Of a stretch of DNA of 64,000 nucleotides, positions 1 to 39,436 are shown in pieces. The stretch comes from a bacterium (GTDB lineage Bacteria; UBA8248): contig CBDBZU010000004.1 in the NCBI GenBank assembly GCA_965213625.1, positions 3,264,001 to 3,328,000 of the forward strand, written 5' to 3'. The notes beneath the pieces were generated by a model that saw only the letters and a list, made by a program, of their open reading frames with translations, ran no database searches and was not told the origin of the DNA. Made by a program: the position numbers and the translations under genes. Within the stretch, counting starts at the first letter, position 1. Each line of letters begins with the position of its first letter.

Positions 1-221
1 TTGGCTTTGCGCTCGAATTTCAATTTCCCACTTGCTTTGGCAAAAAGGGTATGGTCATTGCCTAAACCGACATTCTCACCAGGATGAAAGACCGTACCGC
101 GTTGCCTGACCAGGATGGTTCCTACGTTCACGCTTTCTCCCGCAAAACGCTTTACGCCCAAGCGGCGCCCGGCACTATCTCGTCCGTTCGATGAGCTTCC
201 ACCAGCTTTTTTATGCGCCAT
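1..221 (-). CDS. rpmA: 50S ribosomal protein L27 (runs off window start)
   Basis: Reverse strand reads [43 protein letters not shown]; lies directly downstream of rplU. Confidence 0.97.
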
Positions 222-233
222 TTTCTAATCCTT

Positions 234-551
234 TCATCCTGATGCAAGGATGTCTGTCACTTCAATTTGAGTATAAGGCTGTCTGTGCCCTCTTTTTGTC
301 CGAACTTTTTTGCGACGCTTGAAGCGAAAAGCGATAACTTTTTTCCCGCGCCCATGGTCACGAATCACCGCCCTTACTTTGGCATTACTCAACGCCTCTT
401 TGTCTGCAACAACTTCTTCTCCATTGACGATGAGTCGGACATCCTCAAACTCGACACTCTCTCCAACATTACCGGGCAAGCGCTCGACCAAGACTTGATC
501 TCCCGTTTCGATGCGCATCTGCTTACCCCCGGTTTCCACTACAGCATACAT
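234..551 (-). CDS. rplU: 50S ribosomal protein L21
   Basis: MYAVVETGGKQ N-terminus and KRGHRQPYT motif. Confidence 0.98.
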   Translation of the reverse strand: MYAVVETGGKQMRIETGDQVLVERLPGNVGESVEFEDVRLIVNGEEVVADKEALSNAKVRAVIRDHGRGKKVIAFRFKRRKKVRTKRGHRQPYTQIEVTDILASG

Positions 552-706
552 TCAAAAAATCTCCCTGGGCCCTAAATCAAGCTTTAGTCTTACAAATCAA
601 CGATTTTTCTAGCTTTTGGCTATACCGAGGAGGATATCTATCAACCCAGGCCCTAAATGTCAATTAAAGTATTTACAATCTGATTTTATTTTTCTTGATT
701 TCATTT

Positions 707-1099
707 TCATTTCTTCTTGATCATACTAAATGCCACTCGTTCGGTCCGAAACGATATGGTACGTCTGACAGGTAAATATCCTTTTTTCTGTACTGAAACG
801 GTAAAACCCTTGAAGACATCTTGCATGCCCACCTTGAATTTCAGACGCAAGGGTGTTTTACCCTGATAAACGTCATTGATGAAAACATCTGCCTGCGGAG
901 GATTCGACGTGACAATGAGTTGACGATCCTTGAATCCTTTGACCGGATTTTCAATATTCCTCTCCCACCATTTCCCCATTTGGTTCTTGGTTTTGGCGCA
1001 TCCCGGCACTCCCGATAGGAGTAAGAGGAAAATACTGAAACCTAGAATAAGCCTCAGTGAAGGTTTACACATATCCCTTTGATTCAATTTTCGAAACAT
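707..1099 (-). CDS. PEGA-domain putative lipoprotein
   Basis: Hydrophobic signal ending VPGC; PEGA-like LIVTSNPPQADVFIND..GKTPL and V.KKGY. Confidence 0.75.
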   Translation of the reverse strand: MFRKLNQRDMCKPSLRLILGFSIFLLLLSGVPGCAKTKNQMGKWWERNIENPVKGFKDRQLIVTSNPPQADVFINDVYQGKTPLRLKFKVGMQDVFKGFTVSVQKKGYLPVRRTISFRTERVAFSMIKKK

Positions 1100-1229
1100 G
1101 ATTAAAACCCTATCAAAATCGACCGATGCGTAAACACCAAAAGCTATTCATAACATCAGTTTACACTGAAACATCATGAAGAAAAACACCTTGTTATGAG
1201 GCTGCTCCGCATTTAGTAGCTGCGCCTAA

Positions 1230-2153
1230 CTACGCTGGTGGTTCGCCTACCTGCTGCCTCGACCATTCTTCAAACATTTGCAGCAATTCCGTCTGGTCCG
1301 AATCCGGCCCATATTTTTGTAAACCAAGACCATAAATCTGCCGGGCATGATTCAAATAAAACGCCGTCACACCGTTTTCTCGCGCCAAATCGCTCCCCAT
1401 CGAGAGGTCCTTGTGCATCAATCCCGTGGAAAAACCACAGGTGAAGTCCCTCGGGAGGAGAAAGCGGGGCCATTTATCTTTTGTAGCACTATTCATGCCT
1501 GAACCACCGTTGAAGACTTGAAGCGCCTTTTCAGGGTCTAGGCCTAACTTCGATGCCAAGACCATGGCCTCCATAGAAGCGAGCAGGCTCGTCGCTGAGA
1601 GAAAATTGTTTACACATTTCATTGCATGCCCTGATTCTGGTGTTTCATCAATATGCACAATAGTTTTACCCATTGTCTCGAAAATGGGCATCGCCGCATC
1701 CACAATCTCTTTTGGACCACCAGGCATGATGGCCAGAGTGGCGGCTTCCGCCCCAACGACGCCGCCCGAGACCGGCGCACCGATCAAGTGCAAACCTTTT
1801 CCTGCTACGCGAGATGCAAGCGTACTAGTTCTCGTGGGATAGGAGGAACTCATATCAATTATCAATTTCCCCTTGTCCAGATGCGCGGAAATTCCATCCG
1901 GTCCATCGACTACTGCATCCACGATATCGCTATCAGGTAACATCGTGATGACAACATCGGCGCGCTTTGCCAGATCGGCCAAGCTTTCAGCCGCTTGCAC
2001 CCCATCATCCCTCAAGCACTCGACATTGTCCGGCCTTGTGTCAAAGGCCACGACCGCGTAGTCACCACGTCTCAAATTTTTCGACATGGGTGTTCCCATC
2101 TTCCCGATTCCGACAAAACCGATAGTAACGTTTCCTGGTTCTAAAATTTTCAT
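1230..2153 (-). CDS. NAD(P)-dependent beta-hydroxyacid dehydrogenase (3-hydroxyisobutyrate/tartronate semialdehyde reductase family)
   Basis: IGFVGIGKMG, APVSGG and catalytic KCVNN motifs. Confidence 0.9.
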   Translation of the reverse strand: MKILEPGNVTIGFVGIGKMGTPMSKNLRRGDYAVVAFDTRPDNVECLRDDGVQAAESLADLAKRADVVITMLPDSDIVDAVVDGPDGISAHLDKGKLIIDMSSSYPTRTSTLASRVAGKGLHLIGAPVSGGVVGAEAATLAIMPGGPKEIVDAAMPIFETMGKTIVHIDETPESGHAMKCVNNFLSATSLLASMEAMVLASKLGLDPEKALQVFNGGSGMNSATKDKWPRFLLPRDFTCGFSTGLMHKDLSMGSDLARENGVTAFYLNHARQIYGLGLQKYGPDSDQTELLQMFEEWSRQQVGEPPA

Positions 2154-2334
2154 AGTTTCCTCGCTATCTGAACAAACTGTTTTTTAAAAAACACCACCTA
2201 TCGTTTAGTTGTTTTTGATTCGCTCTAAGGTTTTTGTCAATCCCCATTTGGAGTGGTAAGCTTGAATTTAATTTCAAGCTTCACTCATCATACCGCCCAA
2301 TTAATTTTCCATATGCCGTGCAAGGAGAAACAAA

Positions 2335-3060
2335 ATGGCGCCGATTTCGGCGGATGATGTTGTACTGTATTTGGAGGAAAATCCTGGTTTTTTCATAGAA
2401 CATCCAGACTCACTTCGCCAAAGTGGTCTTCTGACACAAGACAGTACTTCAGCAAAAGTCCTCAACTTACGGGATAAACTTTTTGACCGCTTAAAAGGCG
2501 AAAGAGAGGATTTGGTGCGACTTCTCGACGAAACGATAGAACTCGTTCGCCAAAATGAGCTAATCGAAAATGACTTTGTCGCTATTGAACAACTTTTATT
2601 TGAACAAGCTCCCTCACTGGCAAGCCTTACGGAAATCGTAAAAAATATCGAATCGCGCTTTGGGATTGAATACGCAGGTTTTTTGCTTTTAGAACCCGTC
2701 GATGGCATTCCAGTGCTCGCCGCAAAATCTGACGAATCATGCCGCATCCGCCCACTTGGTAAAATTGAAGAAGAACTCGTACCAATGGATGGAGGAGTTG
2801 TACTCAAGGGTAAATTAGAGGGCTGTGGGGGTCCGCTGTTTCCGAAAGCTTTGAGCGAAAGTATCAAATCAACCGCTATTGTAAGTTTAGAAATTCATGA
2901 GAAAAAAATCGGTTTTCTCATATTGGGTTCCAAAGATCCCGAGCGATATCAAGAGGGTATGGCGACCCACCTCCTCAGGCGTCTTGCAATGCGTTTGGCT
3001 TTGGGAATTTCCATCTTTCAGCGATTCAACAATGGAAAAACGGCGCAAACGATTTCTTGA
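2335..3060 (+). CDS. DUF484-family protein (GAF-like C-terminus)
   Basis: VVLYLEENPGFFIEHP N-terminus; GFLILGSKDPERYQEGMATHLL C-terminus. Confidence 0.8.
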   Translation: MAPISADDVVLYLEENPGFFIEHPDSLRQSGLLTQDSTSAKVLNLRDKLFDRLKGEREDLVRLLDETIELVRQNELIENDFVAIEQLLFEQAPSLASLTEIVKNIESRFGIEYAGFLLLEPVDGIPVLAAKSDESCRIRPLGKIEEELVPMDGGVVLKGKLEGCGGPLFPKALSESIKSTAIVSLEIHEKKIGFLILGSKDPERYQEGMATHLLRRLAMRLALGISIFQRFNNGKTAQTIS

Positions 3061-3107
3061 AGTAAAGCACTCGTTTAGCAATAGTCACATCGTCTGCTTA
3101 TGAGTAA

Positions 3108-4499
3108 TCAGGCTGGAACTCCCTCCGCTTTGGCCGCAAGTTCCATTACCTCGGAAATACTGCTCAGGTTTTCTAAATTCCTGACCCGCTCGATGATCAA
3201 ACCACCCGTTTCCTTTTCGAGCACTGGGGCAGTCATCACGTAGAATCGTTCGATCAACTCACCCCACGTCAACGGATTTCGAGAATCCCCCTTGGGATAA
3301 TCCTGATGCGCTTCGAAAACTCCGCGATCAGTCTCAATTTCGACATTCGCTTGCCATTTATCCGGAAATTCCTTTTCCATTTCGGCATCACCGTAGCATT
3401 CAATCTTCTTGATAATTGAGGAGTAAACCTGAGAGCGGAGGAAATCGTCTGCATACTCATCTAGCCCAGCAGCGCGCCTAAGAATCGCAACAGCCACGGC
3501 ATACTGAAGGCTGAATTGAGCATCAACGATATTTTGCGGATTCGTTTTCATATCATAGGGTTCGATGACTACCATTACGCTCGTCTCCGGAACCCGTACT
3601 TTTACTCGTCTGATTTCCTCTGGCTGAATATCATGCTTTTTGCAAACATCGATTGTGGCGTCAATCGAAGCGTGGTTATAACGACAACAAGCGTAGGGCT
3701 TTATCGCGCTCTCACAGATTTCCCAATACTCACCGAAGTGCTCCACCACATACTCAGGTGTATAGTCATCACTATGGCCATGCAAAAATCCCGTTTTCCC
3801 GCCCAAAATATCTTCCGGTCCCGTATAACCTTCCTGGGCTAAATAGGCGGCGATGATACCGCTATGCGCCGCCCATCCCGGGTGAAACCTCTTCGTCCAA
3901 GCGCCGTTATCGAGATATTGCATCGAACCAGCCGCCTGGCTGCCCGAGATGCCCATTGCATTTGAAGTGGCCTCGACCGAAAGCCCCAAAAGCTTCGATG
4001 CCGTGATCGAGGAGGCGAAAGTGCCGCATGTTCCCGTGGGATGGAAACCACGCTCATAGTGGCTCGTTGGATTCACGGCATTTCCGATGCGATTGGTGAC
4101 TTCATATCCTGCTACGATAGCGGCGATTACTCGCTTCGGATCAGGCTGATGCGCCTCGGCAACGGCTAACGTGCTTGGCATGACGCTGACTGCAGGATGC
4201 AGGCTTGAGCGCGTTGTCACATCATCCATTTCCGTGGCGTGGCTCACCCCCCCGTTCACCAAAGCGGCATGAGGGGCATCAGTTTTCAAACCCGAGCCTA
4301 TGATGGTGCAAGGCCCACCATGGGGAGCGCGCTTTTGGGCAAAATTATGAAACACACGAGAACTGGCCGCCTCCAATGCTCTCAATGTAACGCCGAGGTG
4401 ATCGAGCAAAAAATACTTTGCGCGGTCCCTGGCCTCATCGGACAGAGAACCATAAGTAATGGCGTGAACGTGTTCGACAAGCATTCGGCTGATATTCAT
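3108..4499 (-). CDS. MmgE/PrpD family protein (copy 1)
   Basis: HATEMDD, HP, GFHPTG, TKRFHPG, KPYACC, AQFS motifs; ATG at 4499 preceded by GGAG. Confidence 0.92.
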   Translation of the reverse strand: MNISRMLVEHVHAITYGSLSDEARDRAKYFLLDHLGVTLRALEAASSRVFHNFAQKRAPHGGPCTIIGSGLKTDAPHAALVNGGVSHATEMDDVTTRSSLHPAVSVMPSTLAVAEAHQPDPKRVIAAIVAGYEVTNRIGNAVNPTSHYERGFHPTGTCGTFASSITASKLLGLSVEATSNAMGISGSQAAGSMQYLDNGAWTKRFHPGWAAHSGIIAAYLAQEGYTGPEDILGGKTGFLHGHSDDYTPEYVVEHFGEYWEICESAIKPYACCRYNHASIDATIDVCKKHDIQPEEIRRVKVRVPETSVMVVIEPYDMKTNPQNIVDAQFSLQYAVAVAILRRAAGLDEYADDFLRSQVYSSIIKKIECYGDAEMEKEFPDKWQANVEIETDRGVFEAHQDYPKGDSRNPLTWGELIERFYVMTAPVLEKETGGLIIERVRNLENLSSISEVMELAAKAEGVPA

Positions 4500-32257: not shown

Positions 32258-32502
32258 CTCCTCTCCCGATAATACGTAAAGTAGAAAGCGAATGGACCAA
32301 AGTGTATCCCAGAGCGGCGCGCGCGGCTATGCAGAGCAGCCTATCCCGCCTTTTTCTCGTGAGATTGAGCGCGCGGATTGTCTTACTTTGTACCCTGCCC
32401 CTAGAATGCCCGGCAATATCGGAATCAGACGAGCGGGCCGGGCGCAACGAAGCCCTGCATGCTCAAACGATAATTTTTTCCTCTCACGCGAAGGAATACA
32501 CC

Positions 32503-32940
32503 ATGAGTTTCTATAACTGGGATATGCTCCCCTTGAGTCACGACCGCCCCGGCGTCGCGCACAGGCGGATTTTTGGCGACAACATTCAGATGCAGCACTT
32601 AATCACCGAACCGGGCGGCACGCCCTCGAAAATGCACAATCATCCCGATCACGAGGAGTTCTTCTACATCCAGGCGGGCGAGTGGGAGTTCACGCTCGAA
32701 GACGAGGTGCGGCGAATTGGGCCGGGCGATGTGGTGCACGTCAAGGCGGGCGCGATGCACACGTTGAAATTGGTGAGCGAAGAGCCGGGAATGGCGCTCG
32801 AGGTGTTCTACCCGATGTGGAACCCGGAACTCGCCGGTGACAAGGAGGATTTCACGATAGACGCCATCAAGAGCCGCATGGAGTTCGCCGAAGAGCCAGA
32901 CGAAATGAACCGGGGCCGCCCACCGGGACACGAGGAATAA
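32503..32940 (+). CDS. Cupin domain protein
   Basis: HNHPDHEEFFYI..G and GD......GAMH motifs. Confidence 0.88.
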   Translation: MSFYNWDMLPLSHDRPGVAHRRIFGDNIQMQHLITEPGGTPSKMHNHPDHEEFFYIQAGEWEFTLEDEVRRIGPGDVVHVKAGAMHTLKLVSEEPGMALEVFYPMWNPELAGDKEDFTIDAIKSRMEFAEEPDEMNRGRPPGHEE

Positions 32941-32987: not shown

Positions 32988-33028
32988 AAAAAAAACAGGC
33001 GGCGCCCGTCGACGCCGCCTGCTGTTTT
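32988..33028. terminator. Bidirectional intrinsic terminator
   Basis: A-tract, CAGGCGGCG-loop-CGCCGCCTG, then TGTTTT. Confidence 0.8.
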
Positions 33029-33360: not shown

Positions 33361-34467
33361 TTACGCCTCGATGATGGCGGAGACCACCCCTCCGCCCACG
33401 GGTCCCTGATGGAACACGAGGCCGGCCGAGACGTATACCGCCGGGTCCTGCACCACCGAGGCGATGACGGCGTTCGCCACGGCGCGCACGGGCCGCGTGC
33501 CCAGAACCGAATCCGTAAGCAGCGTGACCCGCTTACCCAGAAGCCTGCCGTCCCAGGGAGCGCCCGCCTTTGCAAACGCGTGCACCACCCGCTTCAATTC
33601 CTCCACACCCGGCAAGCCGTCAAAGGCCAGTCCTGCATTCTTGAGCGCCTGCCTCACGGCGTCCGCGTCGATCAGGTGCTGCATCACCGCCCGGCCGATC
33701 TTGTAGCGGCTCACGGATTGTGAGGAATTCGCCAGTACGACGACTTCAGAGCGCATGAGTTCCACGCCCGCCGAGCAGGAGATCATCTCAGAATACAGGT
33801 CGCCCCGGCTGCACACGTCCGATATCTCGAAAGACGCCCTGTCGATCTCCCCGATACCCACCGCCGCGCCCAGGGCCGAACAGCCGTTCGAGAGGCTCAT
33901 CGAGCGCGTAGTATCCGTGCTCACCACCTTCTTGCCGCGAGAGGCCGCATCGTTGATCCGGTCCGAGGTGAGCAGCGGGCATTTCACCTGCACGTAACCC
34001 ACGTCATCCAGCGAATCCACGCCCGCCTTATCGAGCGCCTCCGCCGCCGCCTCGGCCACCAAGTCCACCTGCGCCATCGTGCCCAACTCCTCGGGCAGCA
34101 GCTCTCGGGTGAAGGCGACTCCCATCGAGAGGCGCTTCTCCCCCGGGCTTTCTGCATCACCCACGTCGGTCTTGGAAATGGCCACCGCGTGGGGACTCAT
34201 GATCCCCTCGCATCCGCCCGACATCACCATCGCGCACATGCCCTGCACCTCGTCGCGGGAGAGGCCCAGCTTCTCCATCATGTAGTCCTCGAAGGAATGG
34301 AGCGCATAGGGCCTCGAATAGTCGTTCACCCGGCCGTTTCCCTCCGTCTTGGCGATGATGGCCTGAATGTCCGCCGCCTGAATGCGGCCTTCCGCCACTG
34401 CATCCGCGAGGCCCGAGACGTCCTCGGGTCCTGCCATCTGAAACTTCACCACCTGGGTATCAAACAC
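33361..34467 (-). CDS. Ring-opening cyclic amide hydrolase (cyanuric acid hydrolase/barbiturase family)
   Basis: KTEGNG.VNDYSR, MSGGCEG..SPH, VQVKCPLLT, SAGVEL, HQGP.GGG. Confidence 0.92.
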   Translation of the reverse strand: MFDTQVVKFQMAGPEDVSGLADAVAEGRIQAADIQAIIAKTEGNGRVNDYSRPYALHSFEDYMMEKLGLSRDEVQGMCAMVMSGGCEGIMSPHAVAISKTDVGDAESPGEKRLSMGVAFTRELLPEELGTMAQVDLVAEAAAEALDKAGVDSLDDVGYVQVKCPLLTSDRINDAASRGKKVVSTDTTRSMSLSNGCSALGAAVGIGEIDRASFEISDVCSRGDLYSEMISCSAGVELMRSEVVVLANSSQSVSRYKIGRAVMQHLIDADAVRQALKNAGLAFDGLPGVEELKRVVHAFAKAGAPWDGRLLGKRVTLLTDSVLGTRPVRAVANAVIASVVQDPAVYVSAGLVFHQGPVGGGVVSAIIEA

Positions 34468-34515
34468 GATTCAGTCTCCTTATTCATCAAGGGCGCCCGA
34501 TGCATGAACGCCGTG

Positions 34516-35919
34516 TCAATCTCCCGGAACCATCAAACCCGCGCGCTCGACGATGGCTGTGGAGGCCGCCTGCGCTTCCTCGCGAATCGCGCGCTCCTCA
34601 TCCTCGCTCATCTTGCTCAGGCGTCCCGCCTCCATGAGCGGCTCGCCATCCACCCAGACCCAGCGCACCTCCGTCCCGTGGGTCTGATACGCGAGAACAG
34701 AAGGCAAATGATGATTCGGGAGCATATGCGGGCCGCTCATGTCGAGCAGAATCATGTCCGCCCGCTTGCCCACCTCGATGCTCCCTGTCTCCGCTTCGAG
34801 TCCGAGCGCGCGCGCCCCATTGCGCGTGGCCATATCAAGCACCTGCTGCGCCGTGATGGCGGCGGGATCCTGATGCACCCCTTTATGGAGCAGGCAGGCG
34901 AGCCTTATCTCCCAGAACATGTTTACCAGATCGTTGCAGTTAGCGTTGTCAGTCCCCAAGGCCACGGGTATTCCGTAGCCCAGCATGCGGGGCACAGGCG
35001 ACACGCCCGAACCCAGATACATGTTGCTCGATGGGAGATGCACCACCTGAGTTCCTGATTCCTTCAAGAGCCGAATGTCCTCCTCGCTCAAGTGGATGCA
35101 GTGGCCGGCGACGAGGCGCTCCGAGAGCAGCCCCCAGGCCGCCAGGTGCTGTACGACGGGAAGACCGCCCACTTCCGATTCCATGGGGTCTTCCGATACG
35201 TGCGTGGAAACGCGGAGCCCGCGCGCTCCGGCCCATTCATCCACCTCGCGGAAGGTCTCCGGCTTCACGTAAACGGGGATGTTCGGCCCTGGCCAGACGA
35301 GAACGCGTCCCGCCGAGCGGCCGTGGTATTTATCCACCAGATGGGATGTCTCCTCGAACACCTCTTCCCTCGTCTTGAGGCTGGGCGGAAAGGTCTTGCC
35401 CCATGCGGCGATGTGGGAGTGCGCCCGCTCGGCGAGTTTTCCAGAAGGAGATATTTCGTTGAAACTCAAAGCGAAAACGCTCCGCATACCCGAATCGTCC
35501 ATGGCCTCTATCATCGCTTCGGCCAATGGGATGGGGACGCGCTCGTTCGTCACTACCGCCGTGGTGCCCGAGCGAATCGCCTCGCACGCGAAGAGTTTGA
35601 CGGAGAGCGCCGCATCCTCCGGCGTATAGGCAACCTGGCCGGGCGCCATGACGTTCAGTCGCCAGTCCATCAGCCGCCTGTCCGCGCCCAGGCCGCCGCG
35701 CAGCAGAATGCACATGATGTGGCTGTGGGCGTTCACCAACCCCGGCATGAGGGCCATTCCCTCGCCATCTACAACCTGCGCTGCGCCGGCATTAATCTTG
35801 GACTCTGAAACATCGGCGACCCGGCCATCCTCGACCAGCACGGATGCGCGAGGGATGACCTGACGCGTCTCGTCTTGCGTCAGGACGCAGGCGTTTTCGA
35901 CCACGAAACGACCCGCCAT
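34516..35919 (-). CDS. AtzA/TriA-like metal-dependent amidohydrolase
   Basis: NAHSH..ILLRGG, DW..NV..PGQ, EAIRSGTT, HVSE, GHC.H, GTDNANCND, GKRAD. Confidence 0.9.
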   Translation of the reverse strand: MAGRFVVENACVLTQDETRQVIPRASVLVEDGRVADVSESKINAGAAQVVDGEGMALMPGLVNAHSHIMCILLRGGLGADRRLMDWRLNVMAPGQVAYTPEDAALSVKLFACEAIRSGTTAVVTNERVPIPLAEAMIEAMDDSGMRSVFALSFNEISPSGKLAERAHSHIAAWGKTFPPSLKTREEVFEETSHLVDKYHGRSAGRVLVWPGPNIPVYVKPETFREVDEWAGARGLRVSTHVSEDPMESEVGGLPVVQHLAAWGLLSERLVAGHCIHLSEEDIRLLKESGTQVVHLPSSNMYLGSGVSPVPRMLGYGIPVALGTDNANCNDLVNMFWEIRLACLLHKGVHQDPAAITAQQVLDMATRNGARALGLEAETGSIEVGKRADMILLDMSGPHMLPNHHLPSVLAYQTHGTEVRWVWVDGEPLMEAGRLSKMSEDEERAIREEAQAASTAIVERAGLMVPGD

Positions 35920-36062: not shown

Positions 36063-36458
36063 ATGTCCAAGATCAAATTCCTGCAGCATTTCAGCATCTA
36101 TTGCCGGGATTTACCGGCCATGCACAAATTCTACAACGAAATTCTGGAACTTCCCGAAATGCCCCGCCCGCACTTCCCCTTCCCGGGTTACTGGTACGAG
36201 GCGGGAACGGACCACCAGATCCATCTCGCCAAGGTGAGCGATACGCACGTGTCCCACTCAATCAGCGATAATGAGGATGGATACATGGACCACCACTTCG
36301 GGATGGTGACCGAAGATCTCGAGGGGATGAAGGAGCGGCTCAAGGCGCATGGCGTCCCGTTTCACGATGAGCCTTACGGCTACCCCCAAATTTTCTTCAG
36401 AGACCCGGAGAACAACCTGATCGAGGTCGCGTCCACCGCGATGTTCGAAATGGAGTAA
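36063..36458 (+). CDS. VOC/glyoxalase family protein
   Basis: H.SI...D.....FY..ILEL, HFG, FFRDPENNLIE. Confidence 0.9.
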   Translation: MSKIKFLQHFSIYCRDLPAMHKFYNEILELPEMPRPHFPFPGYWYEAGTDHQIHLAKVSDTHVSHSISDNEDGYMDHHFGMVTEDLEGMKERLKAHGVPFHDEPYGYPQIFFRDPENNLIEVASTAMFEME

Positions 36459-36592
36459 CCGGCGCGCGACGAGGGTGGGTGCGCACTCCGCCTTGGTCTC
36501 ACTATGTACCGGCTGTCAAGGTTGTAATTGCGGCGATGGAGCGTCATCGCTCCCCCATCGTGGCTTGTCCGATGATTTCTGGAGACAAAATC

Positions 36593-36985
36593 ATGTCATT
36601 TCAAAAATTCCACACCACGCATGTAACCGCCGGGGCGGGAAGCTACTCCCAGGGCCTTCTCGCGGGCAGGACGCTTTATCTCGCGGGCCAGACCGGAGAG
36701 GGGCTCGACGGCGCACCGCCCGCCCTCGGCGACGCGGCGGCCCAGGCTCGACAGGCGTGCGAGAACATAAAGCAGCTCCTCGAAGAGGCGGGCGGCAACC
36801 TCTCCCATGTCGTGAAGCTCACGAACTACATCACCGACAGGGCGTACCGGAAACCCGTCTACGCGGTGATCGCGGAATATTTCGGCCCCCATGCGCCCGC
36901 GAGCACGGGCGTGATCGTAGACGGGCTGGCCTCAGAGGATTTTCTCGTGGAAATCGACGCCACGGCCTATATTCCCGAAGCTTGA
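36593..36985 (+). CDS. Rid (YjgF/YER057c/UK114) family protein lacking the catalytic Arg
   Basis: YSQG, LAGQ, PAST.V.V.GL, LVEIDA. Confidence 0.88.
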   Translation: MSFQKFHTTHVTAGAGSYSQGLLAGRTLYLAGQTGEGLDGAPPALGDAAAQARQACENIKQLLEEAGGNLSHVVKLTNYITDRAYRKPVYAVIAEYFGPHAPASTGVIVDGLASEDFLVEIDATAYIPEA

Positions 36986-37093
36986 GAGGAAATGGCGTAT
37001 TGAGTAATGCGCCTTAACAAGGCAGAATAGTGACACATACAGACAAGTTCGTAAGCAGCCCGTGTGGCTGAGTCCTTTCAGAGGAGAGGGATC

Positions 37094-38680
37094 ATGACCG
37101 AATCTTACGATGGATTGTTCGTCGGCGGCGGACACAATAGCCTGGTATGCGCCGCCTATCTGGCGAAAGCCGGGAAAAAGGTAGCCGTACTGGAACGCTC
37201 AGGCATCGCCGGCGGTGGCTGCTCCACGCATGAAGTCACCCTGCCGGGCTTCAAGCACAACCTGCATTCGAACTACTACGTGGGTTTGGAGAGAAGCCCC
37301 ATCCTCAGCGACCTGGAACTCCACGAATACGGCTTCAGCCTCATCTTCCCGGAGTTTCAACAGGGCTGCGCCTTCAGCGACGGCACGGCGTTCGTCATCC
37401 ACCGCGACGTGGAAAAGACCGTCAAATCTATCGAGCGGATCAACAAAAACGACGCGAAAACCTACCGCGACCTCCACGTCAAATTCACCGAGGGGATGCT
37501 CGATATCATCACCTCCTTCATGTACTGCGCCCCCCTGCCGCCCGAGGAATTGAAAGAGCGCTTCGCGGGGCCGCTGGGACGTGAGTTCCTAAGCTATGCG
37601 AACCTCAGCATGTACGAGGCGGTGGACCAGCATTTCGAGGACGACAGGCTGCGCGTGCTGTTCAAGCTCTTCCTCGGATCCTTCACCCTCGAGAATACGC
37701 CAACAACCGGCATTTTCTTTCCGAGAATCTTCTCGCGCATCGCTAGCTTCGCCCTGCCCGTGGGCGGGTCGGTGAACTTCACCCGCGCGCTCGAGCGCGT
37801 GGTCGTGAGAGGCGGCGGAAAGGTGCTCACCAACGCGGAAGTCCGCGAGATCACGGTCGAAAGTGGTGACGCAACCGGCGTCATACTGGAAGACGGCACC
37901 CGCATCGAGGCCACCGAGTTCGTGGCAAGCGGTGTGAACTGGCCGCTCACTGTGCGCCTGGCCGGGGAGGATTACTTCGGCGGCAGGCTCGCCAGGGCGG
38001 CGCTCGAGTTCCAGTGGGCGAGCCACGGGCTTTGCACCATCCACCTCGCGCTCAAGGAAGCGCCCGACTTCAAGGCCGCGAAATTCGATCCCGACATCAA
38101 CAAGACGTTCAACATCTTCTGGGGCGCGGATTCGACCGAGGAGATCAACGAGTGCTTCGAAACAATCCACGACGGCGAACTGCCCAAGCTCATGGGCAAC
38201 GGCGGGAGCAACAGCCACTTCGACCCGACCTATTCGCCCGACGGCACGCACGTGGGCTACTGGTGGCCGTTTGCGCCCTATGAACTCAAAGACGGCGGGG
38301 CCGAGGCGTGGGACACGCGGCGCGAGGAGTACACCCAGCACTTCATCGACTCCTGGAAGCCCTATGCGCCCAACATCAACCACGACAACATCATGGGCAG
38401 CTATCTCTACACGCCGCTCGACATCGTGCGCATGAACCCGAACTTCGTCCGTGCGAGCCACCACGTGGGCGCCTACATTCCCGAGCAACTCGGCTACAAC
38501 CGCCCGCATCCGGAAGTGAGCGACTTCCGCACGCCTGTCGGGAAACTGTATCTCTGCGGTTCTAGCTCACACGTGGGCGGTGCGGTGACGGGTGCGCCCG
38601 GCTACAACTGCGCGAACGCGATCGCCGAGGATCTGCACATCGATCGCTTCTGGGCGCCGGTCGAAACCATGATGGCCTGA
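37094..38680 (+). CDS. Phytoene-dehydrogenase-like FAD-dependent oxidoreductase
   Basis: GGGHNSL..AAYL, GGG..T.E.TLPGF.H, TP.D, RTPV..LYLCGS..H.GG.V.G.PGYN. Confidence 0.88.
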   Translation: MTESYDGLFVGGGHNSLVCAAYLAKAGKKVAVLERSGIAGGGCSTHEVTLPGFKHNLHSNYYVGLERSPILSDLELHEYGFSLIFPEFQQGCAFSDGTAFVIHRDVEKTVKSIERINKNDAKTYRDLHVKFTEGMLDIITSFMYCAPLPPEELKERFAGPLGREFLSYANLSMYEAVDQHFEDDRLRVLFKLFLGSFTLENTPTTGIFFPRIFSRIASFALPVGGSVNFTRALERVVVRGGGKVLTNAEVREITVESGDATGVILEDGTRIEATEFVASGVNWPLTVRLAGEDYFGGRLARAALEFQWASHGLCTIHLALKEAPDFKAAKFDPDINKTFNIFWGADSTEEINECFETIHDGELPKLMGNGGSNSHFDPTYSPDGTHVGYWWPFAPYELKDGGAEAWDTRREEYTQHFIDSWKPYAPNINHDNIMGSYLYTPLDIVRMNPNFVRASHHVGAYIPEQLGYNRPHPEVSDFRTPVGKLYLCGSSSHVGGAVTGAPGYNCANAIAEDLHIDRFWAPVETMMA

Positions 38681-38725
38681 AGATGAAAATTTGACTCGCG
38701 TTATTTGAGGAAAGGATAAAATTTC

Positions 38726-39436
38726 ATGGAACTGATCGACCTCTCACAAACTGTGGCGGCGGGCGGATTCGAGCGCCCGTTCCACCCCAAGGTGGCCATT
38801 GAGCCGATGATGACGCACGAGGAGTCGTCCGGAAGATTTCACGGGAAATTCTCTTTCGCCGCCATGAAGCTCACGCTCTCGGATCACACCGGAAGCCACG
38901 TGGACGCCCTGAACCATTACGTGCCCGGAGACGCCCCCTCCATCGACCAGTTGCCGCTCGATCGCTTCTATTCGGGTGCTATCTGTGTGGATTTTTCGGA
39001 CATCGCGCCCAAGACCTACATCGAAACCGAGCACATCGAGCGCGAACTGGAAAAACACGGGCTTTCCATCGAAGAAGGCGACGCTTTTTTGTATTACACG
39101 GGCCATTTCGAGAAGAGCTTCAAAAACCCCGACCCCGATGTATGGTGGAAGGAATTCGCAGGATTAAGCCGGCCCGCCACCGAGTATCTCGCCGATCGGG
39201 GCGTTCGCAACATCGGCTGTGAGGCGTTCACGATAGAAAACCCCACGCAGATGTTCCCCGAATCGGAAGAACCCTACCCGTCTCATCAGGTGTGCAAGGA
39301 GCGGGGGATGCTCAACACGGAGAATCTGGTGATCCCCAAGCGCCTGGTGGGCAAGCGCTTCACGTTCCTGTGCCTGCCCATCAAGCTGAAAGACGCCACC
39401 GGCTCCCCGGTGCGCGCCGTGGCGGTACTGGACTGA
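38726..39436 (+). CDS. Cyclase / kynurenine formamidase-family metal hydrolase
   Basis: HTGSHVDA..H, ENL, GSPVRAVA. Confidence 0.9.
   Translation: MELIDLSQTVAAGGFERPFHPKVAIEPMMTHEESSGRFHGKFSFAAMKLTLSDHTGSHVDALNHYVPGDAPSIDQLPLDRFYSGAICVDFSDIAPKTYIETEHIERELEKHGLSIEEGDAFLYYTGHFEKSFKNPDPDVWWKEFAGLSRPATEYLADRGVRNIGCEAFTIENPTQMFPESEEPYPSHQVCKERGMLNTENLVIPKRLVGKRFTFLCLPIKLKDATGSPVRAVAVLD

Follow-up and report, generated by a model that had tools for sequence, protein, structure and literature searches.

We describe here a two-gene locus in a 64,000-nucleotide stretch of a bacterial genome (GenBank assembly GCA_965213625.1, contig CBDBZU010000004.1, positions 3,264,001 to 3,328,000 of the forward strand; hereafter the window), in which a gene for an amidohydrolase (AH) of the subfamily containing AtzA (atrazine chlorohydrolase) and TriA (melamine deaminase) is followed by a gene for a ring-opening amidohydrolase of the AtzD/TrzD family (AtzD2). 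AH has the fold and the metal ligands of AtzA, carries an Asn/Cys dyad at the positions 328 and 331 of AtzA, is placed by trees in the AtzA/TriA subfamily and is strictly paired with AtzD2 in genomes of Nitrospinota. This downstream AtzD-family gene is the strongest functional clue for AH. We consider it likely that AH deaminates some amino-heterocycle whose product is opened by AtzD2. The narrower proposal, that AH is a deaminase of an amino-triazine-type heterocycle which passes its oxo product to AtzD2 for the scavenging of nitrogen, appears to us evenly poised on the basis of the sequences compared below.

The AH gene is preceded by an AGGAGG ribosome-binding site. All peptides quoted from its open reading frame (ORF) in an earlier reading made from the letters alone (the sequence-only reading), namely ILLRGG, RRLMDW, LNVMAPGQ, PED, VKLF and EAIRSG, were found in the translation, and the motif GTDNANCND lies where it had been placed, at residues 322-330 and bases 34930-34956. 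The protein matches Pfam Amidohydro_1 with 193.6 bits and reaches the cut-off of none of the NCBIfam equivalogs, the best match being 5'-deoxyadenosine deaminase with 306 bits against a cut-off of 522. Matches in the ESM Atlas were limited to generic amidohydrolase clusters. Among all solved structures, AtzA (PDB 4V1X) was the top match (E 2.1e-98, 333 bits, residues 7-463), followed by a methylthioadenosine/S-adenosylhomocysteine (MTA/SAH) deaminase with 188 bits. An AlphaFold model based on 14 close family members alone had a predicted local distance difference test score (pLDDT) of 38.7; rebuilt with 119 diverse homologues, it reached a pLDDT of 96.3 and superimposed on 4V1X with a template modelling score (TM) of 0.96 and a root-mean-square deviation of 1.5 Å, the next structures having a TM of 0.87-0.88 or less.

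To locate the active-site residues, AH was aligned by HMMER to the AtzA chain 4v1x, in which the chain number minus 20 gives the AtzA number, and by MAFFT together with two plasmid-encoded proteins, AtzA of pADP-1 (L098) and a TriA-type protein from Klebsiella (L099:5986-7410) that has eight of the nine TriA residues. The two alignments agree. The AtzA ligands His66, His68, His243, His276 and Asp327 and the catalytic Glu246 are all kept, as His65, His67, His240, His273, Asp324 and Glu243, respectively, and these columns are conserved in 245-254 of the 255 homologues aligned below. With these residues, AH belongs to the mononuclear-metal deaminase/dechlorinase branch of the amidohydrolase superfamily. 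The dyad of Asn plus Cys and the TriA-like Leu and Ile claimed by the sequence-only reading were recovered. In both alignments Asn325 falls on AtzA Asn328 and TriA Asp328, and Cys328 on AtzA Ser331 and TriA Cys331, with the motif free of gaps; Leu83 occupies position 84 (Leu in TriA, Phe in AtzA) and Ile214 position 217 (Ile in TriA, Thr in AtzA). At the nine positions where AtzA has another residue than TriA according to section 3.3 of PMC4356373, AH is TriA-like at three (84, 217 and 331), AtzA-like at two (255, Gly, and 328) and has neither residue at the other four (92 Met, 125 Thr, 219 Val and 253 Val). The main determinants of dechlorinase specificity in AtzA are given as Ser331, Asn328 and Phe84 in Noor 2012 and PMC4356373; only Asn325 of AH matches these, whereas of the TriA trio it has the Cys and the Leu and lacks Asp328. 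By these residues AH is neither AtzA nor TriA, and it is an orthologue of neither enzyme. All 14 AH family members compared (66-93% identity) have Asp324, Asn325 and Cys328 as well as Arg87, Arg127 and Ile214-Pro215-Val216-Tyr217, and at least 90% of them retain Leu83 and Cys70, so the dyad and Leu83 are not peculiar to a single sequence by chance.

Compared with the AtzA pocket-lining residues listed in PMC4356373, AH has Cys70, Met84, Arg87, Met91, Arg127, Asn213, Tyr217 and Glu247 where AtzA has Gln71, Tyr85, Leu88, Val92, Asp128, Ala216, Ala220 and Asp250. The two new arginines (Arg87 and Arg127) together with Asn213 and Tyr217 suggest a small, oxo-rich, possibly anionic ring as the substrate rather than an N-alkylated herbicide. 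As listed in Table 1 of Noor 2012, the AtzA variant S331C, an Asn/Cys enzyme, gains 50 s-1 M-1 on melamine, retains 3,200 s-1 M-1 on atrazine and gains ametryn activity, and the variant S331C/F84L, with the Leu/Asn/Cys triad of AH, is bifunctional (910 s-1 M-1 on melamine, 650 on atrazine). Since Cys331 is thus the residue that gives AtzA deaminase activity, Cys328 counts in favour of AH being a deaminase.

AH is 37% identical to AtzA and 37% identical to TriA. In a search of 5.8 billion proteins, the AH family was tight at 66-93% identity, followed by a drop to at most 41%, and a representative library behaved alike. For phylogeny, 251 of 264 collected proteins (those of 400-520 amino acids (aa) were kept) were aligned with AH, AtzA, the TriA-type protein and a haloarchaeal 5'-deoxyadenosine deaminase to give 255 rows. 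FastTree joined the AH family with AtzA/TriA in a 99-row clade (support 99), and IQ-TREE (LG+C20 PMSF, quick search), applied to 76 rows hand-picked to represent each clade, recovered a 50-row clade with AH and AtzA/TriA (SH-aLRT 100); within it, the Nitrospinota AH family (5 rows, support 100, stem 0.71) was sister to the other 45 rows (support 94, below star level). Supports from a quick search and from FastTree are less safe than those of a full bootstrap search. The earlier placement of AH as a relative of AtzA and TriA is nevertheless upheld, as the trees set it apart from the MTA/SAH- and 5'-deoxyadenosine-deaminase-type proteins (support 99 and 100) and AtzA is nearest by both sequence and fold; a position among generic MTA/SAH deaminases, which the sequence-only reading had named as the outcome speaking against it, was not seen in the trees.

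Among the 255 homologues, the dyad was Gly/Ser in 88, Gly/Cys in 43, Asp/Cys in 35, Asn/Cys in 24 (13 in the AH family, 11 outside), Asn/Leu in 15 and Asn/Ser in AtzA alone. Position 328 was Asn in 51 and Gly in 143, the latter including the inspected MtaD/DadD-like rows, and Cys was present at 331 in 107. Leu occupied position 84 in 224 of the rows and is therefore the default state, not a TriA-specific trait. AtzA and TriA themselves lie in a 16-row IQ-TREE clade (support 99) with Asp/Cys and Leu84 in 14 rows, which favours a TriA-like ancestor for AtzA. Two interpretations in the sequence-only reading did not survive this survey. The dyad had been called a hybrid, intermediate state, but it is fixed in 14 of 14 members of a family that forms a separate deep branch at 37% identity to AtzA and TriA; and the protein had been taken as probably ancestral in type, but the path between AtzA and TriA starts from Asp/Cys, the state of their own clade, and does not pass through that of AH. 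From these comparisons, AH is not an INTERMEDIATE; Asn/Cys is the stable natural state of a separate deep lineage and an independent solution.

The pairing with AtzD2 was assessed in loci of the AH family from one genome per species (64-97% identity), which yielded 21 loci labelled Nitrospinota, Nitrospinaceae or only 'bacterium'. In 20 of these the next gene downstream, with the same orientation, belongs to the AtzD family, and the sole unpaired locus (L018) is a second AH copy located 19 kb from a paired copy in the same genome. An AH orthologue was found in 24 of 51 Nitrospinota genomes (21 of 23 in the window's genus, the window's genome included, one of five in a second genus and both of two in a third), and by coordinates all 24 carry the pair. 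It is also present on a metagenome contig (L110; 66% and 77% identity), and a sponge-metagenome contig covers the whole pair at approximately 94% identity. Within the genus the flanks are constant: on one side lie genes for a vicinal oxygen chelate (VOC) protein, a RidA-family protein, a CrtI-like flavoprotein and a cyclase, while the other side has a small gene and one for leucyl aminopeptidase; this synteny, kept across the loci of the genus, fits the chromosomal location stated in the sequence-only reading and indicates vertical inheritance. In three more distant sublineages the flanks differ and nothing but the pair is retained, in some cases with genes for a small cupin and an M20 peptidase upstream of it. 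Neighbours seen in distant relatives were an M20 peptidase, a small cupin, oligopeptide-type permeases, hydantoinase B, a creatinase-like protein, an amidase and a molybdopterin domain protein, and none beyond the pair was common to all of them. In one 99% complete genome (G025), the syntenic locus (L104, G025:C10:966000-982000) has no AH match and no VOC match, and what is left of the AtzD gene is broken pieces, one of them interrupted by in-frame stops; the two genes of the pair were thus lost together. As the genomes are kin, the pairing counts are not independent, and the argument is carried by the changed flanks and the joint loss.

Some variation around the pair was observed. The genome with the unpaired copy (G039; L018, L019) has two AH copies, each located after a small cupin gene (133-134 aa), and an AtzD-family gene follows one copy only. 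A cupin gene is found in the same position on the metagenome contig L110 (L110:1620-2045), there preceded by an M20 peptidase. In another genome (G033), a 282-aa ORF (L013:9583-10431), by its motifs similar to methyltransferases dependent on S-adenosylmethionine, is inserted between AH and the AtzD-family gene; the final ~20 residues of this ORF are a repeat of the AH C-terminus, which looks like a duplication of the 3' end during the insertion.

AtzD2 passes the NCBIfam equivalog for cyanuric acid amidohydrolase, NF052395, with 398.7 bits (cut-off 360) and matches PF09663 with 403.5 bits; it scores 340 bits against the cyanuric acid hydrolase (CAH) of Moorella (PDB 6BUM) and 247 bits against barbiturase. 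Like AtzD/TrzD and the Moorella enzyme, it keeps three Ser-Lys pairs (Lys40/Ser83, Lys162/Ser232 and Lys300/Ser347) and two of the three substrate-binding arginines (Arg52 and Arg328, Moorella numbering). It differs from them at four sites, and all 21 paired copies share these changes: Arg193 to Asn, Glu351 to Phe after a one-residue insertion, Gly348 to Ala and Cys46 to Arg in Moorella numbering, corresponding to Arg46/Asn194/Ala348/Phe352 in AtzD2. This signature was confirmed by comparison with three plasmid-derived sequences, those of AtzD, a TrzD-like protein and the enzyme of Rhizobium. In Moorella CAH, Glu351 is the salt-bridge partner of Arg193, and Cys46 has been placed near the active site (PMC6557486). 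A fair alternative to a different ring substrate is that the substrate-binding arginine may have moved in AtzD2, with Arg46 standing in for Arg193.

Asn was present at position 194 in 101 of 125 rows made up of the 120 best matches to AtzD2 and five references, a sample that is biased to the AtzD2 type. In the 2014 survey of 119 sequences, Lys and Gln were the only exceptions at this arginine, the subgroups then known to lack it being a Bacillus subgroup (Lys) and barbiturase (Gln) (PMC4051656). Two of three metagenome loci scanned with an AtzD2-signature gene (L118, L127) have it beside AtzH-like and amidase genes, and in one of them (L118) genes for a major facilitator superfamily transporter and for a distantly related Asn/Cys amidohydrolase are also close by; the operon for cyanuric acid, atzDGEHF, includes AtzH (PMC6219798). 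We had considered whether Asn194 and Phe352 prove that AtzD2 is not a cyanuric acid hydrolase, and this view was softened in light of the Asn in 101 of 125 rows and the two genes beside AtzH-like genes. A large, taxonomically mixed set of AtzD-family sequences (P0278-P0384, L112-L130) was also noted to have Arg46/Asn194/aromatic-352 for Cys/Arg/Glu. A relative in the genus encodes, in addition, a canonical cyanuric acid hydrolase paralogue (equivalog 525 bits; 485 bits to a solved cyanuric acid hydrolase vs 275 to barbiturase), and AtzD2 is 43% identical to the canonical enzyme of its genus. In one genome (G014; L101:5015-7374) the canonical gene directly follows a carbamate kinase gene; this copy is absent from the window's own genome.

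The signs of an operon are the short spacer of 48 nucleotides (nt), a ribosome-binding site on both genes and a lack of terminator-like sites between them. Across the region, terminator-like sites (4 vs 2.8 +/- 1.8 by chance) and promoter-like sites (1 vs 1.0 expected) were not above chance. In the RNA-Seq run X22, the match was limited to one 259-nt contig (35632-35890; 4 differences, depth 3), which is not a demonstration of transcription, and a second possible RNA run had no match to the AH locus.

For the pair we infer a deamination, a reaction order, a type of substrate and a role in nitrogen scavenging as follows. With the ring-opener as an obligate neighbour, the simplest scheme would convert an amino-oxo-ring to an oxo-ring plus ammonia, followed by opening. 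AH has all the equipment required of a TriA-type deaminase, namely a mononuclear metal site, Glu243 and Cys328, and would act as a mononuclear-metal amidohydrolase working like TriA: the metal-bound hydroxide would attack the sp2 ring carbon that bears the exocyclic amino group, and Cys328, backed by Asn325 and not by Asp, would donate the proton for the departure of ammonia. Most likely, the substrate would be an ammelide/ammeline-type amino-s-triazine rich in oxo groups, or else an amino-heterocycle closely resembling it; the best-fitting known reaction is that of ammelide to cyanuric acid. Deamination would yield cyanuric acid or a close analogue, and this oxo product would then be opened by AtzD2 made from the same transcript and hydrolyzed further, the nitrogen ending as ammonia or urea for assimilation.

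Of the characterized enzymes, TriA resembles AH in fold class, metal ligands, Cys331, Leu84, Ile217 and placement in the same subfamily, and the TriA-type gene of the Klebsiella plasmid is likewise clustered with a gene for a ring-opening amidohydrolase. In contrast to the plasmid-borne TriA, AH is chromosomal and vertically inherited in Nitrospinota, shares only 37% identity with it, and has Asn where TriA has Asp328 and Cys, Arg, Arg, Ser, Asn and Tyr for its Gln71, Leu88, Asp128, Met155, Ala216 and Ala220. AtzA of pADP-1, the best solved match, shares Asn328 and Gly255, whereas AH has Cys for Ser331 and Leu for Phe84 and does not keep the residues in contact with the alkyl groups of atrazine. 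A more distant relative of AtzA, the s-triazine hydrolase TrzA of Rhodococcus corallinus, deaminates melamine and dechlorinates dealkylated chloro-triazines.

Several observations weigh against an amino-triazine route. AH keeps only four (W, Q96, N126 and E246) of the ten pocket residues common to AtzA and TriA, which the legend of Fig. 2 in Noor 2012 gives as Q71, W87, L88, Q96, N126, M155, A216, A220, E246 and D250, the last being Glu in AH. TriA D328N, which has the same triad as AH in a TriA background, is inactive on all three substrates in Table 1 of that paper; given the activity of AtzA S331C/F84L, the effect of the dyad is context-dependent and not transferable at 37% identity. With regard to AtzD2, the mutation R188Q of the equivalent arginine lowered cyanuric acid hydrolase activity 23,000-fold (PMC4051656), and in most genomes of the genus a canonical cyanuric acid hydrolase is encoded at another site as well, hinting at another substrate for AtzD2. 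Concerning the later steps, BiuH was above its cut-off in none of the 51 Nitrospinota genomes, and neither an AtzH-like gene nor an AtzE above the cut-off was found in the window's genome. Gene order does not fix the order of the reactions. Finally, we know of no natural source of amino-triazines for these bacteria.

Some of these points suit other substrates better. AH may deaminate an amino-oxo-pyrimidine or another non-triazine ring, of the 6-aminouracil or azacytosine type, with AtzD2 acting like barbiturase on a less symmetrical oxo ring. We regard this as unlikely. In its favour are the amide of Asn194, at a site occupied by Arg in cyanuric acid hydrolases and by Gln in barbiturase, the change of Glu351 to Phe and the canonical enzyme kept alongside in many genomes. 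AtzD2 is also relatively nearer to barbiturase (340 vs 247 bits) than its canonical paralogue is (485 vs 275), and the AH model has an isocytosine deaminase (TM 0.88) among its structural neighbours. Nevertheless, of the two enzyme types AtzD2 is still nearer to the cyanuric acid hydrolases, whose equivalog cut-off it exceeds, the arginine of AtzD2 may simply have moved to position 46 near the active site, relatives with the same signature adjoin AtzH-like genes and amidase genes, which are typical of cyanuric acid catabolism, and the closest characterized kin of AH act on s-triazines. Alternatively, AH could follow AtzD2, which gene order permits, and act on a linear product such as biuret, carboxybiuret or a similar ureide or amidine, thus replacing the BiuH or AtzE/AtzH steps. 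The lack of these genes in a genome that does have allophanate hydrolase would be explained in this way, and formiminoglutamate deiminase, an enzyme of the same superfamily branch that acts on a linear amidine, is among the NCBIfam matches of AH. We hold this to be improbable, as all characterized close kin (AtzA, TriA) act on ring carbons, the Cys/Asn dyad and pocket shape fit a TriA-type ring deaminase, and 14 amidase-family genes could supply the missing steps.

Two further possibilities seem very improbable to us. Removal of a halide, methylthio group or alkylamine from a triazine-like ring, as performed by AtzA or by promiscuous Asn/Cys AtzA variants, would be in line with the atrazine and ametryn activities of AtzA S331C. 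However, Ser331 is absent from AH, the hydrophobic residues holding the N-alkyl groups of atrazine are now polar or charged, and uncultured Nitrospinota carry the family as a conserved trait of the chromosome rather than as a plasmid gene of recent origin. Hardly more can be said for a nucleoside or purine deaminase of the MTA/SAH, 5'-deoxyadenosine, guanine or 8-oxoguanine type, which would stand beside AtzD2 by accident of descent: such families give the best NCBIfam matches, all far below their cut-offs, but the trees separate AH from them with supports of 99-100, Gly is found at position 328 in their inspected MtaD/DadD-like rows where AH has Asn, and the pairing with AtzD2 survives changes of the flanks as well as joint loss. 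Returning to deamination of an amino-triazine or related ring, the fullest version would be an old, vertically inherited two-enzyme route for a natural compound of this kind in uncultured Nitrospinota, many of which are linked to sponge metagenomes by their record titles or by matching runs, with its own Asn/Cys deaminase and a cyanuric-acid-hydrolase relative with a moved arginine. As a whole we propose this tentatively and with some doubt.

With respect to the downstream steps, the window's genome has urease and, above cut-off, an allophanate hydrolase, which would serve as sinks, and it has 14 genes with the amidase signature. The allophanate hydrolase gene (G000:C4:2384546-2386135, outside the window) matches positions 2-412 of a 563-position model only and has two TGA codons inside the match; two more amidase genes lie within 10 kb of it. 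In a related family, five of seven genomes (G001-G004, G007) have 11-30 matches each to the AH type of amidohydrolase. Such counts, together with the 14 amidase genes, suggest a heavy investment in organic-nitrogen hydrolases. No cyanase was found in the window's genome, and the model for the type II dimethyl sulfoxide-reductase alpha subunit, a marker of nitrite oxidation, had no match above cut-off there.

The literature we found on Nitrospinota in connection with cyanuric acid, triazine or melamine does not describe the AH-AtzD2 pair, and the one study we found that sought atzD in metagenome-assembled genomes of nitrifiers reports none (PMC12625717). Within the literature searched, the fixation of this pair on a Nitrospinota chromosome is a new arrangement, while AH itself would work like TriA of the same subfamily. 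Cyanuric acid was not known as a natural product in the 2014 study of the Azorhizobium enzyme (PMC4051656). AtzA and TriA are a textbook case of rapid enzyme evolution, yet what their relatives and the cyanuric acid hydrolases do in nature is an open question, and a lineage-wide enzyme of this subfamily together with a ring-opener offers a concrete, testable pair for the discovery of a natural substrate. If our proposal holds, s-triazine-type compounds would be a natural nitrogen source in the sea, the subfamily giving rise to AtzA and TriA would have had such a role long before herbicides, and a route for scavenging ring nitrogen would be added to the nitrogen cycling of Nitrospinota.

Table 1. 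Coordinates (positions in the window) of the AH-AtzD2 locus and its main residues
Feature	Position	Strand	Basis
AH, amidohydrolase gene, 467 aa, AtzA/TriA-containing subfamily	34516..35919	-	intact ORF, ATG start, Pfam, AtzA match, model
HSHIMC: metal ligands His65 and His67; Cys70 where AtzA/TriA have Gln71	35710..35727	-	alignments
Pocket helix, Leu83 (position 84) to Arg87 (AtzA Leu88)	35659..35673	-	alignments; pocket list PMC4356373
Arg127 for AtzA Asp128, pocket/channel position; invariant in AH family	35539..35541	-	alignments
Loop Asn213-Ile214-Pro215-Val216-Tyr217 = AtzA Ala216-Thr217-Thr218-Thr219-Ala220	35269..35283	-	alignments
GTDNANCND motif: Asp324 (34948-34950, metal ligand), Asn325 (34945-34947), Cys328 (34936-34938)	34930..34956	-	alignments
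AH-AtzD2 spacer, 48 nt; AAGGAGA 7 nt before AtzD2 GTG; no terminator-like site	34468..34515	-	sequence scan
AtzD2, AtzD/TrzD-family ring-opening amidohydrolase, 368 aa, GTG start, divergent paralogue type	33361..34467	-	NCBIfam, PF09663, structure matches
Asn194 of AtzD2, for substrate-binding Arg (Arg193 Moorella, Arg188 Azorhizobium)	33886..33888	-	alignments; PMC4051656, PMC6557486
Terminator-like hairpin (13 pairs + T run) downstream of AtzD2, shared with convergent gene 32302-32940	32994..33023	-	sequence scan

Elsewhere in the window, the genes at 36063-39436 on the forward strand, divergent from AH, encode VOC/glyoxalase-fold, RidA-family, CrtI-like flavoprotein and cyclase/arylformamidase-like proteins; they are conserved in the genus and absent from the distant relatives of the pair. 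The first 4,000 nucleotides (1-4000) have a G+C content of 0.46-0.47, in contrast to ~0.6 in most of the window, and their genes include those for a 3-hydroxyisobutyrate-dehydrogenase-like protein, a PrpD/MmgE protein and a DUF484 protein.

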